NCBI RefSeq assembly: GCF_000195975.1 | Contig: NC_005070.1 | Span: 570,001 to 602,000 of the forward strand | DNA length: 32,000 nucleotides | Origin: Parasynechococcus marenigrum WH 8102 | GTDB taxonomy: Bacteria; Cyanobacteriota; Cyanobacteriia; PCC-6307; Cyanobiaceae | Direction: 5' to 3' | Part shown: positions 7,305-18,852 of the stretch, piece after piece | Layout of the letters: every line of letters starts with the position of its first letter | Position numbering within the stretch: the first letter of the stretch is position 1 | The notes under the pieces: model-generated | What the model was told of the DNA's origin: nothing | Databases searched by the model: none | What the model saw: the letters and a program-made list of their open reading frames with translations, nothing else | Position numbers and translations under genes: made by a program

Positions 7305-7377
7305 AGCCGATGACCTGACTTGAACAGGCGACCCACGCTTTACGAAAGCGTTGCTCTACCGGCTGAGCTACATCGGC
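7305..7377 (-). tRNA. tRNA-Thr (anticodon CGU)
   Basis: The minus strand folds by hand into a cloverleaf. Acceptor stem GCCGATG/CATCGGC, D arm GCTC-AGCCGGTA-GAGC, anticodon arm ACGCT-TTCGTAA-AGCGT (CGT), variable loop GGGTC, T arm GCCTG-TTCAAGT-CAGGT, discriminator T. No CCA is encoded. Confidence 0.9.
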
Positions 7378-8454: not shown

Positions 8455-11400
8455 TTAGGTGGTGAGTTTGCGGCGCTGGGTGACCATCTTGAAGGCCTCA
8501 ATCCGGTCGCCGTCTTCCCAGTTGGCAAAGCGATCGGTGCCGACACCACACTCGAAGCCGGTGGCCACCTCCTTGACGTCGTCCTTGTTGCGGCGCAACG
8601 AGTCGAGGTCGCCGTCGTACACCACCTGGGAGCCGCGATGGACACGCACCTTGCAGTTGCGTTGCAACTTGCCGGTGGTGACGTAGCAGCCCGCAACAGC
8701 GCTCTTACCAATGGTAAACACCGCCCGCACTTCGGCTTCGCCGAGGGCTTCCTCCACCAGTTCGGGCTCCAACAAGCCCTCCATCGCCAACTGGATGTCC
8801 TCCAGCAGCTTGTAGATCACGTCGTAATCGCGCACATCCACGCCGGTGGCATCTGCTGCCTTCTTGGCGCCCGAGGCCATCGAGGTGTTGAAGCCAACGA
8901 TCACGGCGCCGGAGGCGGCCGCCAGGTCGACGTCTGTTTCGGTGACCTCACCCGGTGCCGAGAGCAGCACACGAACCTGGACCTCGTCCTTGGGCAATTG
9001 TTCAAGGGAGCCAAGGATTGCTTCCACAGAGCCCTGGACATCCGCCTTCAGGATCAAGTTCAGCTCCTTCAGCTCGCCTTCATTGGCCTGACCTGACATC
9101 GCTGTGAGCGACACCCGGCGCGAGGCCATCTGCTGCGCCAGGCGTGTGGCGCGTGCATCCGACGCACGATCTCCCACAACAGCCCGTGCCGATTTCTCGT
9201 CGGGATACACCTCGAATTCGTCGCCAGCGGTCGGAACCTCGCTGAAACCGAGAGCCTCAACGGCAAACGAAGGACCAGCCTCTTTGAGACGTTGGCGGTT
9301 GTCGTCGACCATGGCTCGCACCTTGCCAAGCACCGGCCCGGCCGCCACGACATCGCCGGTCTTGAGGGTGCCGTTCTGCACCAGCAGTGTGGCCACAGGA
9401 CCCTTGGCCTTGTCGAGGTGAGCCTCGATCACAGTGCCGCGGGCCAGGCGATCCGGATTGGCCTGCAGGTCTTCCACTTCGGTGACCAGCAGGAGCATCT
9501 CCAGCAACTTGTCGATGTTCTCGCCCTTGATGGCGCTCACCGGCACCATCACCACATCGCCGCCCCAGTCTTCCGCCAGAAGGTTCTGCTCGGACAGCTC
9601 CTGCTTCACCCGGTCAGGGGAAGCCCCTTCCTTATCGATTTTGTTGATCGCTACCACAATCGGTACCTCTGCAGCCCTGGCGTGGCTGATGGCTTCCAGC
9701 GTCTGGGGACGCACGCCGTCGTCAGCGGCGACTACCAGAACGGCCACATCCGTCACCTTGGTGCCGCGGGCCCGCATGGCCGTGAAGGCTTCGTGGCCCG
9801 GGGTGTCGAGGAAGGTGAGCTTGCGCGCTTCGTCGTTGTGGTCGATCTCGACCTGATAAGCACCGATGTGCTGGGTGATGCCGCCGGCCTCGCCGGCAGC
9901 CACCCGCGCCTTGCGGATCGCATCGAGAAGGCTCGTTTTGCCGTGGTCGACGTGACCCATGACCGTGACCACGGGTGGACGACGGATGAGGTGTTCCTTG
10001 TCGGCCTCTTCGATCATCTCGACGGTCTTTTTGGCCGCCTCCTCCACGTCGTCCTGGAGCACCGGCACGCCGAATTCTTCGGCCACCGTCTCGATGGTGT
10101 TCATGTCCAGGGTCTGGGTGACCGTGGCAATGATTCCCTTGAAGAACAGAGATTTGATGATCTCGGAGCTTTCGACACTGAGCATGTCGGCGAGCTCCTG
10201 CACCGTGAGGTTGTCCTCCGGAACGATGAGCATTTCCGGCCGCACCTGCTTGGCCTCGCGGGCAGCGCGCAGTTCCATCGCCCGACGCCGCTGGCGTTGA
10301 CGGGTGGTTTCCTTCTTCCGCTTCCGCATCGCCGCCATCGGCTTGGGAGCGGCCTTTCTCTGCGACTTCGGCTTGGCGGGGCGAGCCAGGCTGGCGGACA
10401 GGACCATGGCTTGCTGTTCGCCGGCGAATCCTCCGGTTTCAGCGGTCAGCGCATCGTCGTTCTCGCCGATGATGTGGACCTTCTGGCGCTGCTTCTGTGG
10501 CGAACGGCTGCGCAGGGCTTCCAGCTTGGCGCTGTCATCCCAGTCCGGACGTCCAGGCGGCGTTGACCGCCGGGGGCACCGGGACGGAAACCCCCCGGGC
10601 GACGCGGTGCGGTTGGGGGTGTGGGCCGGGCCACCGGTGGCGTGGCAGTTCCGGCACCGTCGCCAGCTTTGGTGGGGGCATCGGGTCGGCGGGGGGCAGG
10701 CGCCGCGGGGCGTCCAACGGGCTTCTGAAGTTGCATGAGCTCGCCCGGTGCCACGGGTTTGCGCATGCCGCTTGGCATGCCAGGGCGTTGCGGGCTACCG
10801 GCACCGGGGCGTGTTGGTGGGGCCGGACGACCGCCGCTTCCAGTGGAACTGCCGTCCCGGCGGATGGGCTTGCCCACCAGCTCCAGGGTGTTGCCGCCGC
10901 TGCGGGCCGGAGCGCCGGGTCGTGTCGGACGCCCAGGACTGCCGGGACGCTGAGGGACACCGGTTCCGGGGCGTTGCGGTGCACCAGCTCCACTGCGGGT
11001 GGGTGCACCGGTGCCTGGACGTCGTGGAACAGGCTTGCCCACCAGCTCAGGGCGAGGTGTGGGGCGCGTGGGTGGCCCCGCTTTGACGGGTGCTCCTGGA
11101 CGCGCTGGTGCTGGAGCCCCTGGACGGGTTGGAGCACCGGGGCGAGGTGCTGATCCGGGGCGGGAAACGATCTGTGGCTTCTGGCCAGCGCCTGGCGTTG
11201 GGCGGCTGGGGGCAGCTGCAGGCCGAGGTTTGGGTTGATCGGCTGAGGGACGCGCGGGTGCTGGACGGGCCGGAGCCGGTCGTGCCGGGGCTGGTTTGGC
11301 GGCAGCGGGTTTTGCTGGCGCGGGTTTTGCGACCGTTGGCTTAGCAACCGTTGGCTTAGCAACCGTTGGCTTAGCAACCGTTGGCTTGACGACTGTTGGG

Positions 11401-11936
11401 CGAGCAGGTGGAGCCGTTGGTTTCGACGGCGCAGAAGCCGTGGCGGGCGTGGCCGGCTTCGGCTTGCTGACGACCTCAGGTTTGGCCGGCTGAGGACGCG
11501 GTGGCGGAGCGGCGGCAGGCCTCGGCACTGGTTTGGCCGGTGCTGCTGGGGCCGCTGCCCTCGCTGGTGCTGGACGGGCCGGTGCTGCTGGGGCTGCAGG
11601 CTTCGCTGGTGCTGCTGGCTTAGACGCTGATGCTGCAGGCTTGGCTGGTGTTGCGGGTTTCGCCTGAGCCGGTGCCGGTTTGGCGGGAGCCGCTTTTTTG
11701 ACCGACAGGATCGCCTTGCCAGGAGCTGGTTTGGCCGGTGCAGGGGCAGACGCTTTGCTGCCGTTGCCTTTCGACTTCAGCAGGCTGCGGATCTGTCCGG
11801 CTTCGGCGTCACTGATGGAGCTGCTGTGGCTCTTCGCTGCGATCGAAAGCTTCTCGGCCGCATCCAGCACGTCCTTGTTCTCAAGGCCCAGGTCCTTGGA
11901 CAACTCGTAAATTCTGACTTTGCCGCTGCTGGTCAT
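8455..11936 (-). CDS. infB: translation initiation factor IF-2, split into two ORFs by an apparent 1-nt frameshift near 10551-10562
   Basis: ORF 10446..11936 carries the IF-2 N-terminal domain ([30 protein letters not shown]) plus a long Pro/Ala-rich linker. ORF 8455..10407 carries the G domain ([21 protein letters not shown]) and C-terminal domains. The C-terminal frame reads as good protein upstream of its ATG ([49 protein letters not shown]), whereas the N-terminal frame degenerates after GGQRR. Confidence 0.9.
11326..11400 (-). repeat. 15-bp in-frame tandem repeat inside infB (PTVAK units)
   Basis: ttagcaaccgttggc occurs three times without mismatch at 11341-11385, flanked by one degenerate copy on each side. 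It encodes [22 protein letters not shown] in the IF-2 linker. Confidence 0.85.
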
Positions 11937-14328: not shown

Positions 14329-14586
14329 TCAGCTCTTCGGCAGGTCAATGGATGGTGCATCGGGGAAGGCGTCACCCTTCTGCTCAACACCCCTAAGCTC
14401 GGGATCCTGATTGATGCACTGGCGATGTTGATCAGGCGTTTTAAGGTACTGGCAGACCCGGCTCCAAAGCTTGCTGCGGGTCCCTTTCGGACCATTGCTG
14501 AACTGAACGGCATCCAGCGTTCCGCCATTGGATTCAATCGACACCTGGCAGAGAGGGCAGCGAAGGATCTCCGGTGTGGCGGTCAC
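14329..14586 (-). CDS. small hypothetical 4-Cys (zinc-ribbon-like) protein
   Basis: 85-aa ATG ORF with CPLC near the N-terminus and C-x12-C (CQYLKTPDQHRQC) later. It lies 73 nt upstream of rimP on the same strand. No family was recognised. Confidence 0.45.
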   Translation of the reverse strand: MTATPEILRCPLCQVSIESNGGTLDAVQFSNGPKGTRSKLWSRVCQYLKTPDQHRQCINQDPELRGVEQKGDAFPDAPSIDLPKS

Positions 14587-14604
14587 GGTTCAATGGCAAA
14601 GCAC

Positions 14605-14630
14605 GACGGGACACTAATCAGTGCCCCGTC
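14605..14630 (-). terminator. terminator-like hairpin downstream of the RiPP cassette
   Basis: Minus strand GACGGGGCAC-TGATTA-GTGTCCCGTC forms a 10-bp stem with one mismatch, followed by GTGCTTTGCC, a weak U tract. It begins 16 nt after the stop of the 14646..15113 gene. Confidence 0.3.
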
Positions 14631-14645
14631 TGTTGCGCTGGTTAA

Positions 14646-15113
14646 TCAGTTGCAACCTTGAACGGAAATGCGGTAACTAAAACCAGTGGCTTTCGGGTCT
14701 TTGTTGGCCCCAATTTTGAAGTTCACCTGGCTGATGCTTTTGCCCTGAACCTGTGAAAAGGGCCCGAACATGCGGCCGGTGCCCAGTGGAGGCTGCAGCT
14801 GCTCATCCACAACCTTGAGGTTGCTGCCGTCACTGAATTTGAGGAAGACTTCGATCGGGTAGCTGGTGGAGTCGCTGGAATCGGCGGTGAAGAACAGCTT
14901 GAAGCTGCTGTAGGGCCGGTCCACCACGAAATCGGTGTTCCAGTTTGTGCGTCCGACTGTGTTTCCGATCAAACCCTTGGGGCGCTGCACTTTCTTTTTC
15001 ACGATGGCTTCGCCACCGCCAACGGGCTTGAGAAATGTGCAGGCCGCTTCTGAGGTGACGGGAGCCAGCAGCAGCAGAGCAGTGCCGCTGAGCAGTGAGA
15101 TCAAGCGAGACAT
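14646..15113 (-). CDS. secreted hypothetical protein co-oriented with and 8 nt downstream of the radical SAM maturase
   Basis: The ATG at 15113 gives MSRLISLLSGTALLLLAPVTSEA/ACTF, a Sec signal with an AXA-like site. The mature part of about 130 aa has beta-strand-like composition, with Cys at mature position 2 and at the penultimate position (..VQGCN). The ORF-track extension to 15248 overlaps the maturase and is discounted. Confidence 0.6.
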   Translation of the reverse strand: MSRLISLLSGTALLLLAPVTSEAACTFLKPVGGGEAIVKKKVQRPKGLIGNTVGRTNWNTDFVVDRPYSSFKLFFTADSSDSTSYPIEVFLKFSDGSNLKVVDEQLQPPLGTGRMFGPFSQVQGKSISQVNFKIGANKDPKATGFSYRISVQGCN

Positions 15114-15121
15114 GGATCGAT

Positions 15122-16306
15122 TCAGTGGGTTGGTTGGTGGGTGAGCGGAGGTCCGGCTTCGAAGCGTTCCAACAGCACCTGAACAGGGATCTGGGTGCCG
15201 AAGCGGCAGGCGTTGGTCTCGCTGGAGGCGAGGCTGCCGTGTTCCCAAAATTTGTTGCTGCCGTTTCCGCCACCGCAGAGGCCGAAGTATTCACAGCCGT
15301 TGTGGCAGGTCTCCACACCGCGGCTCATGTTCGTGAAGAGGCGCTGGAACTGATCGGTCTGGGTGGACTCCACCAGGGACACGTCCTTCAGGTTTCCCAG
15401 GTTGAAGGTGCCGTAGCGATCGCTTGCTACCGACAGGAGCTCAGGGTCGAAGGTGGAGAAGTTGCCCTGCCAGTCGACGCTGAGGATGGAGAAGGGGCGG
15501 TTCAGTTCGTTCTGGGTCATGCGTTGGTTTCCCTGGATCAGGCTGATCACCTGCTGGAACTCGCGCAGAACCACGGGATAGCCGTCCTGTTCACTGAGGT
15601 GCCAGAAGGCCCTCAGAAAATCGCGGTACTTGGCTTCCATGGCTGAGCCCTGCATGGAGGAGCTGGTGTGAATGCCCTCCTGCTCTTCCACGTTGAAGCC
15701 GACATCGTTGATGCCGTGATCGCGGAAGAAGCGGTACATCAGCTCCGGCTGCTCCATGGCATCGGCGGTGAGCACCGAAATGCAGTGGAAGGGCACATTG
15801 TTGCGATGCAGAGCTTCAATCCCCTTCATCGCCAGGGCGTGGGAACCGCGCCCGTTGCGGAAGCGGCGGTGGGCGTCGTGAATCTCTTCAGGACCATCCA
15901 CGCTGATGCCCACCACGATGCGGTTGGGGTGGAAGCAATCGCACCAGGCGTCGTTGATCAGCGTGGCGTTGGTCTGCACGTGCTGGGTGAACTCCAGCCC
16001 TTCGGCACCACGCTCAGCAAGGCTGCACTGCAGGATTACCGTGGCCTCGTCGTACCACCCCGTGGGCAATGTGAGGGGTTCGCCGGCGTGCCACACCAGC
16101 GAAAACTCGGGGCCGGCGTAGGGGCTCTCGAGGATGCGCTGCACCAGTAAAGGCAACAGCTCGAGATAGAAGACCCGTTTCTTCTGCCGATCAGGCAGAT
16201 AGCAGTAGGAGCAATCGAGATTGCACAGCGAGGTGGATTGCACCACCACCAGACCGATGGGCCCGAACCGGTTGAGGTCGGGCCCAGATTTCAACGAACT
16301 GATCAC
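15122..16306 (-). CDS. grrM: radical SAM/SPASM peptide maturase, GrrM/OscB-type (cyclophane-forming)
   Basis: The CNLDCSYC radical SAM motif (Cx3Cx2C) lies at 16202-16225. The C-terminal Cys cluster CHNGCEYFGLC-x22-C is consistent with an auxiliary Fe-S (SPASM/twitch) domain. The gene is adjacent to a Gly-rich repeat precursor. I chose the GTG at 16306 as the start. It overlaps the precursor stop as GTGA and places the Cx3Cx2C about 28 aa from the N-terminus. Confidence 0.88.
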   Translation of the reverse strand: MISSLKSGPDLNRFGPIGLVVVQSTSLCNLDCSYCYLPDRQKKRVFYLELLPLLVQRILESPYAGPEFSLVWHAGEPLTLPTGWYDEATVILQCSLAERGAEGLEFTQHVQTNATLINDAWCDCFHPNRIVVGISVDGPEEIHDAHRRFRNGRGSHALAMKGIEALHRNNVPFHCISVLTADAMEQPELMYRFFRDHGINDVGFNVEEQEGIHTSSSMQGSAMEAKYRDFLRAFWHLSEQDGYPVVLREFQQVISLIQGNQRMTQNELNRPFSILSVDWQGNFSTFDPELLSVASDRYGTFNLGNLKDVSLVESTQTDQFQRLFTNMSRGVETCHNGCEYFGLCGGGNGSNKFWEHGSLASSETNACRFGTQIPVQVLLERFEAGPPLTHQPTH

Positions 16307-16710
16307 CAGTTGACGAATCCGCCGCCGCCGTTGCCCCAGGCACCGCCGCCGTTGCCCCAGGCACCGCCGCCGTTGCGCCAACCACCGTGGTAGCCGCCAT
16401 TCCCCCAGGTGTTACGGCTGTTGCTCCACTTATTACCGCCTTTGCCGTTCTTCCATTTTCCACTGCCGTAGCTGTTGCTGAATTTGTGGCCGCCGCCATT
16501 GCCCCACTTGCTCTTGGCCACCAGTTCACCGTCGTTGTCGATGGTCTTCAGCAGGGAGCTCCAATCACCGTTGCGAACGGAATCAATGCGGGCCTCGATG
16601 CTGTTGTTCAGCTGATCAGGTGAGCTGTACGTCGCGCTGGCTTCAGCGGTTTGGCAGAGAACGGCGCTGGAAGCAATGAGGGCCTGAAAAGCGATGAGCG
16701 AACGGTTCAT
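16303..16710 (-). CDS. grrA: rSAM-associated glycine-rich repeat RiPP precursor (GrrA/OscA-like)
   Basis: 135 aa from the ATG at 16710. It has a signal peptide MNRSLIAFQALIASSAVLCQTAEA, a leader-like region of about 44 aa, and a 67-aa core WGNGGGHKFSNSYGSGKWKNGKGGNKWSNSRNTWGNGGYHGGWRNGGGAWGNGGGAWGNGGGGFVNW. The core has nine (W/F)-X-N motifs. Confidence 0.85.
   Translation of the reverse strand: MNRSLIAFQALIASSAVLCQTAEASATYSSPDQLNNSIEARIDSVRNGDWSSLLKTIDNDGELVAKSKWGNGGGHKFSNSYGSGKWKNGKGGNKWSNSRNTWGNGGYHGGWRNGGGAWGNGGGAWGNGGGGFVNW
16322..16380 (-). repeat. 21-bp in-frame tandem repeat in the precursor core (WGNGGGA units)
   Basis: gttgccccaggcaccgccgcc at 16330-16350 is repeated exactly at 16351-16371, with partial copies on both sides. 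Confidence 0.8.
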
Positions 16711-16756
16711 GACAAAGGAAGAAGTGATGTTGAAAGGCTTGTGTCGAGGTGTTTGT

Positions 16757-18852
<2,096 letters not shown>

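Follow-up and report, generated by a model that had tools for sequence, protein, structure and literature searches.

A GrrA/OscA1 family precursor with nine aromatic-X-Asn motifs and its GrrM/OscB maturase in marine Synechococcus WH8102

Marine Synechococcus is abundant, and the strain WH8102 (Parasynechococcus marenigrum) is the source of the DNA analysed here, a stretch of 32,000 nucleotides (contig NC_005070.1, positions 570,001 to 602,000) that is referred to as the window in the following and numbered from its first letter. Within it a segment at 16306-16508 had been flagged by a model that worked from the letters and their translated open reading frames (the sequence-only reading). [quoted passage not shown] The gene grrA adjoins grrM, which encodes the corresponding maturase. 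GrrA is not new, as the family is curated, the chemistry of the OscA/OscB pair has been characterised and RefSeq already names the exact protein.

The grrA gene and its repeated core

The following features were assigned to the precursor gene.

16303-16710, minus strand: grrA, encoding the 135-residue GrrA/OscA1 precursor, stop codon included (open reading frame translation, NCBIfam model TIGR04260 and exact database match)
16639-16710, minus strand: predicted Sec-type signal peptide, residues 1-24, consisting of MNRS, a hydrophobic stretch and AEA, with cleavage after A24 (sequence pattern)
16507-16638, minus strand: leader or pro-region, residues 25-68 (22-sequence alignment)
16576-16599, minus strand: IEARIDSV motif, residues 38-45, a probable GrrM recognition element
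16306-16506, minus strand: core, residues 69-135, Gly-rich, with nine [W/F]-X-N candidate cyclophane sites and ending in FVNW
16322-16387, no strand assigned: 21-bp tandem repeat (Tandem Repeats Finder, 3.1 copies, 93% matches), two perfect copies and a diverged one

The open reading frame opens at 16773 and closes with the stop codon at 16303-16305; the first ATG lies at 16710, and translation from this ATG gives a peptide of 135 residues: MNRSLIAFQALIASSAVLCQTAEASATYSSPDQLNNSIEARIDSVRNGDWSSLLKTIDNDGELVAKSKWGNGGGHKFSNSYGSGKWKNGKGGNKWSNSRNTWGNGGYHGGWRNGGGAWGNGGGAWGNGGGGFVNW. A longer product of 156 residues starting at TTG 16773 was rejected, as the ATG at 16710 agrees with the N-termini of all homologues. 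GrrA scored 82.6 bits (cutoff 31, E = 3.1e-23) over profile positions 3-113 of 118 against TIGR04260, a curated equivalog model that carries the name "GrrA/OscA1 family cyclophane-containing rSAM-modified RiPP" (rSAM, radical SAM). Together with this score, the Gly-rich C-terminal half with its aromatic-X-Asn repeats and the adjoining grrM place the peptide in the GrrA family. An exact-sequence look-up identified it as CAE07120.1/WP_011127472.1 of WH8102, for which the RefSeq name is already GrrA/OscA1 family RiPP. No Pfam model matched the precursor, and a full-text search (SYNW0603-0606, GrrA/GrrM, cyclophane with Synechococcus) found no literature specific to WH8102.

The 67 residues of the core comprise 26 Gly, 11 Asn and 8 Trp. 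They contain the triplets WGN, FSN, WKN, WSN, WGN, WRN, WGN, WGN and FVN, beginning at residues 69, 77, 86, 95, 102, 111, 118, 125 and 132, respectively, which corresponds to spacings of 8, 9, 9, 7, 9, 7, 7 and 7 residues, and the last residue is W135. Translation thereby confirmed the composition, the number and positions of the triplets, the 7-9 residue spacing and the terminal Trp given in the sequence-only reading. The start of the span it had given for the core was correct and the end overshot by 2 nucleotides, W69-W135 being encoded by 16306-16506, so that direct translation of 16306-16508 reads out of frame. The triplets take up 9 of the 11 Asn and 9 of the 10 Trp and Phe residues in the core; the one left over is the Trp at the C-terminus, where there is no residue at +2. 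Shuffling the core 200,000 times resulted in 1.62 [WF]xN triplets on average and never in more than 7, compared to the nine observed. Amino acid composition therefore does not explain the pattern. Y81-G-S and Y107-H-G were considered as further sites and rejected, since Y81 is Arg in many homologues and a Gly in position 3 has no Cβ side chain.

Part of the core is encoded by the 21-bp repeat. A comparison in codon register placed its two perfect copies at residues 115-128, each encoding GGAWGNG and thus motifs 7 and 8. The WRN unit corresponds to a third, diverged copy, and the closing FVN unit lies outside the repeat. The earlier description of the last three units as a perfect 21-bp tandem duplication was hence right as to the repeat and overstated as to its extent, only two copies being perfect. 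That the number of repeats would vary had also been predicted, and it does differ between strains: in a DNA alignment the WH8102 allele has exactly one 21-bp unit more than those of strains A15-28, ARS1019 and PH41509. The 135-residue allele was present on 16 contigs, and the additional unit is therefore not an assembly artefact. This natural pair of alleles with 8 and 9 motifs, one clean 21-bp unit apart, provides a ready-made test of how GrrM counts or processes its sites.

Conservation of the precursor and the GrrM maturase

A protein search with GrrA returned 209 homologues at E ≤ 0.001, and a scan of species-representative genomes for GrrM returned 80 loci. Motif statistics were derived from 98 full-length close GrrA homologues and column conservation from a 22-sequence alignment. 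Among the close homologues 763 of 767 core Trp or Phe residues had Asn at +2, the middle residue of the motif took 11 identities (G, R, K, S, V, A, I, Q, N, L and H), and the number of motifs per precursor ranged from 5 to 10 with a mode of 8, compared to nine in WH8102. Invariant core positions in the alignment were W69, N71, N97, W102, N127, F132, N134 and W135, and a further seven (F77, N79, N88, N104, W111, N120 and W125) were conserved in at least 90% of sequences. Alignment of orthologues had been named in advance as the place where the motif could fail through lack of conservation; the W/F and N columns turned out to be invariant or nearly so, with the second position free. In Cyanobium, Verrucomicrobia, Alphaproteobacteria and Planctomycetes, distant precursors whose genes lie directly upstream of a GrrM homologue also retain repeats of the form Ω-X-N, in 5-13 copies and with Ω being W, F or H.

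Conservation extends to the leader, in which P31, R41, I42, W50, L54 and A65 are invariant in the same alignment. A motif of the form φ-(E/Q/D)-x-(R/K)-φ-x-x-φ was found in 17 of 18 precursors from four phyla and reads IEARIDSV in WH8102 GrrA, where it probably serves as the element recognised by GrrM. Two metagenome proteins carry parts of GrrA in fused form. In P0088 the N-terminal part of GrrA is joined in frame to the last ~30 residues of GrrM, and in P0070 GrrA is joined to the C-terminus of a 155-residue protein that is encoded downstream of grrM. These are either natural alleles in which a deletion removed grrM or chimeric assemblies.

The features of the maturase gene are as follows.

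15122-16306, minus strand: grrM, 394 residues, starting at a GTG that shares bases with the stop codon of grrA (TIGR04261)
16202-16225, minus strand: CX3CX2C motif of grrM, C28-NLD-C32-SY-C35
15206-15307, minus strand: four auxiliary-cluster Cys of grrM, C334, C338, C344 and C367

GrrM matched NCBIfam model TIGR04261 nearly end to end (574.3 bits, cutoff 310, profile positions 1-362 of 363) and is identical to CAE07119.1/WP_011127471.1, already named GrrM/OscB in RefSeq. Scores against models of other maturases were all below their cutoffs (AmcB 281/425, XyeB 59/450, YhhB 145/445, DynA 136/450 and DarE 86/650 bits), and Pfam recognised only the generic Radical_SAM domain. The gene overlaps grrA by 4 nucleotides, GTGA, within the hexamer TGGTGA (16303-16308, minus strand). 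This junction recurs in 15 picocyanobacterial loci, with the GTG in frame with grrM in 14 of them (the exception being locus L022), and it suggests coupled translation and a GrrM of 394 residues. RefSeq starts grrM at TTG 16294, four codons later, which gives 390 residues; other gene callers use the GTG, and the RefSeq start may be too short.

C28, C32, C35, C334, C338, C344 and C367 were invariant in 37 of 37 sequences and were the sole conserved cysteines, forming a CX3CX2C motif and a CX3CX5C...C region. The closest solved relatives of GrrM are the anaerobic sulfatase-maturating enzyme anSME (PDB 4k36-4k39, E = 3.7e-23) and the radical SAM domain of the triceptide synthase ChlB (9gm3, E = 1.4e-17). 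With anSME, the closest solved structure, GrrM shares the radical SAM core and the C-terminal CxxxCx5C...C region. The two differ in that the cysteines aligning with the first auxiliary-cluster region of anSME are absent from GrrM and all 36 aligned homologues, and in that GrrM does not have the fourth Cys of the CX2CX5CX3C motif. Measured against the cluster ligands of the anSME structure, this cysteine alignment suggests that GrrM and the rest of this "SPASM" family probably bind one auxiliary Fe-S cluster in place of the canonical two. The pattern does not speak against membership in GrrM/OscB, as it is common to all homologues examined.

Cyclisation chemistry and related enzymes

The founding characterised GrrA/GrrM pair is OscA/OscB from an Oscillatoriales cyanobacterium (Nguyen et al., Nat Chem 2020, summarised in PMC11002830). 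OscB is reported to link C7 of Trp to Cβ of Asn or Asp, and C4 of Phe to Cβ of Asn, between positions i and i+2 (PMC11002830), and triceptides in general are defined by Ω1-X2-X3 motifs (PMC11499958). According to the title of a 2024 paper that appears in the reference list of PMC11851443, OscB gives a uniform topology and accepts diverse Gly-rich precursors. Like OscA and OscB, WH8102 GrrA and GrrM belong to the NCBIfam families TIGR04260 and TIGR04261, and in both pairs the precursor is Gly-rich with W-X-N and F-X-N repeats; all nine GrrA motifs fit the chemistry reported for OscB. The proposal that these are OscB-type cyclisation sites is thus supported by curated models passed by both precursor and enzyme, by the published chemistry and by the conserved Ω and N columns. 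Differences are that the host is a marine unicellular Synechococcus, that the allele has nine motifs compared to a mode of 8 among close relatives and that the grrP gene upstream is broken.

The family membership of both genes, their arrangement and the conservation of the motifs are seen directly in the sequences. The chemistry (by homology with OscB), the number and order of the sites used and the export of GrrA we infer as follows. The two genes would be translated from one message, and coupling via the observed GTG/stop overlap is probable. In the cytoplasm GrrM would recognise the GrrA leader, probably via IEARIDSV, and its [4Fe-4S] cluster on C28/C32/C35 would cleave SAM, giving a 5'-deoxyadenosyl radical that would abstract the Cβ hydrogen of the position-3 Asn in a W/F-X-N motif. 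The Asn Cβ radical would then add to the ring of the position-1 aromatic, at C7 of Trp or C4 of Phe if GrrM acts like OscB, and the ring would re-aromatise, the electron probably passing to the one C-terminal auxiliary cluster (C334/C338/C344/C367). This would result in a strained three-residue cyclophane. Cyclisation would be repeated at up to nine sites with Gly-rich spacers between them, upon which the N-terminal Sec-type signal would export the modified GrrA, with cleavage after A24.

The number of cross-links formed per peptide by related enzymes is three for PauB, three for WprB and five for FwwB. In these systems, along with those of ChlB and MicB, several (3-5) cyclophanes are formed by one enzyme on the motif repeats of a single precursor, as is proposed for GrrM; they differ in having fewer sites and other motifs (WPR, YDR etc.), and some need partners, such as WprC. 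Nine sites on one GrrA peptide would be at the high end compared to these multi-site triceptide synthases. There is a serious, though lesser, chance that GrrM cyclises fewer than nine motifs or forms a linkage unlike that of OscB, for example through another carbon of the ring or in an order set by the C-terminal motif, resulting in fewer or different macrocycles. Such behaviour has parallels, since WprB and PauB modify their sites independently while FwwB depends on the position of the C-terminal motif and ChlB and MicB are hierarchical, and both the distance of GrrM from non-picocyanobacterial members (38% identity to Xenococcus) and the invariant FVNW C-terminus, which suggests a special role for the last motif, are in line with it. 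Against it, all nine motifs are W-X-N or F-X-N, both types being reported as accepted by OscB, and every motif column is conserved, which argues for the use of each.

XncA/XncB (XyeA/XyeB) and MscA/MscB are likewise radical SAM systems that form three-residue cyclophanes on Ω1-X2-X3 motifs (PMC11002830, PMC11499958). Their enzymes belong to other subfamilies, as reflected in the 59 bits of WH8102 GrrM against the XyeB model (cutoff 450); XncB uses C6 of Trp, and the XncA/MscA-type systems have Arg or Ser at X3 and short precursors without a Gly-rich multi-repeat tail. The second-best model for GrrM was that of AmcB (NF041718), also a cyclophane-forming radical SAM maturase, to which it aligned over the full length with 281 bits. 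As this is below the NF041718 cutoff of 425, GrrM is not an AmcB.

Beyond confirmation the significance of the locus is small, as family, chemistry and annotation of the exact protein all pre-exist. Reading the bare sequence did yield the right substrate motif, the right number of sites and the polymorphism of the repeat. Of use to specialists are the pair of alleles with 8 and 9 motifs, the Sec or Tat signals of the precursors together with the lipoprotein GrrP, and the cysteines of GrrM, which suffice for only one auxiliary cluster.

Export, grrP and the gene neighbourhood

Two further genes flank the grrA-grrM pair.

16910-17635, minus strand: grrP, encoding an orphan periplasmic substrate-binding-like lipoprotein of the GRRM system, with an in-frame TGA at 17252-17254
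14646-15113, minus strand: gene of a conserved 155-residue protein, hydrophobic in an N-terminal segment and with Cys close to either end, immediately downstream of grrM

The N-terminal open reading frame of grrP comprises 127 residues and scored 101 bits against TIGR04262, below the cutoff of 190, and grrP is accordingly not intact as an open reading frame. Translation read through the TGA gave 255.9 bits. The interruption lies within a single frame, and orthologues are intact (241-296 residues), with Ala, Pro, Thr, Arg or a gap at the position of the TGA. In the WH8102 record the pieces are listed separately and the second, CAE07121.1, is annotated as 'Possible pseudogene'. On this comparison grrP is probably a pseudogene in WH8102.

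The loss of grrP raises the question of whether the system is decaying in WH8102, such that grrA and grrM are intact open reading frames in a locus that is non-functional or unexpressed. We regard this as improbable. The in-frame TGA and the pseudogene annotation point towards decay, as do the metagenome proteins P0088 and P0070 in so far as they resemble deletion fusions of grrA. On the other hand, GrrM aligns with its profile over the whole length and has lost none of the seven invariant Cys, the 21-bp duplication is in frame and left the motif perfect, and the same alleles were seen on 16 contigs for grrA and 25 for grrM; moreover, GrrP has no known catalytic role.

Residues 1-24 of GrrA consist of a basic N-terminus and a hydrophobic stretch at about residues 5-21 followed by A22-E23-A24. 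All 98 homologues share A24, and each has a small residue (A/V/G/T/S) at position 22, so that the N-terminus looks like a Sec-type signal peptide. Its invariant C19 was considered as a lipoprotein cysteine and this was rejected, as the Leu at -1 is unlike a lipobox. GrrP in turn starts with a canonical lipobox, LLSAC. GrrA homologues from Alphaproteobacteria and Planctomycetes (loci L032, L035, L036 and L041) have twin-arginine starts, SRRxLLR or DRRRFLK, and the Gemmata precursor passes the twin-arginine translocation (Tat) signal model TIGR01409 with 18.2 bits (cutoff 16.7). No dedicated protease or transporter was found in the locus. Taken together, the Sec and Tat signals, the lipobox of GrrP and the lack of a protease or transporter in the locus suggest modification in the cytoplasm followed by export through a general pathway. 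The precursors' signals and the lipoprotein GrrP also suggest that the product acts outside the cytoplasm. To our knowledge, the use of general export signals is unusual for a peptide family modified by radical SAM enzymes. The literature covered, the primary OscA/OscB papers excepted, contained no mention of an export route for this family.

More tentatively, GrrA might not be a classical small RiPP that a dedicated protease and transporter set free. It could be a substrate of general secretion, via Sec in picocyanobacteria and Tat in the planctomycete and alphaproteobacterial homologues, that is cut by signal peptidase only and persists as a periplasmic or extracellular protein of ~110 residues, its Gly-rich tail stiffened by up to nine cyclophane staples, with GrrP as an extracytoplasmic binding partner that was lost in WH8102. 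We put this forward as a possibility of limited weight.

Several points weigh against GrrA as the precursor of a nine-fold cross-linked product of GrrM. The broken partner gene grrP may mean that the system has partly decayed. Scans of 14400-17800 for sigma-70 promoters and intrinsic terminators found none, such scans being weak for cyanobacteria. The regiochemistry and site occupancy are extrapolated from OscB, and the GrrM of Xenococcus, the nearest non-picocyanobacterial cyanobacterium retrieved, is 38% identical. Sec export of a GrrA bearing nine cross-links is a prediction, and our knowledge of the WH8102 pair comes from sequence. That GrrA is an ordinary secreted Gly-rich structural protein, not cross-linked and next to a radical SAM gene by accident, is very improbable, since in spite of its signal peptide, its low-complexity Gly/Asn-rich tail and the lack of a Pfam model it passes a curated equivalog model, its aromatic and +2 Asn residues are strictly conserved with the rest variable, and precursor and maturase stay paired from phylum to phylum, the stop codon of the one overlapping the start of the other.

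The gene order that is conserved in the retrieved genomes of marine Synechococcus is htrA / grrP-grrA-grrM-(155-residue protein) ... rimP-nusA-infB. The gene of the 155-residue protein keeps its place in 9 of 21 loci from marine or related picocyanobacteria; others, such as L012 and L021, and the Cyanobium-type loci lack it. Profile searches returned no family match for it, and its membership in the GRRM system is uncertain. A search of Rfam at the gathering threshold gave nothing near the grr locus, its only match in the window being a tRNA at 7305-7377 on the minus strand. Further along, infB (IF-2) is split over two frames near 10550-10565 on the minus strand, between open reading frames at 10446-11936 and 8455-10407. 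Its relatives are continuous, and the window seems to be one C short in CGCCGCC(C)TGG. The IF-2 deposited for WH8102 and WH8103 is the C-terminal piece of 650 residues only, and the interruption may reflect a true lesion, a gene divided in two or, in this essential gene, an error of sequencing that is shared.

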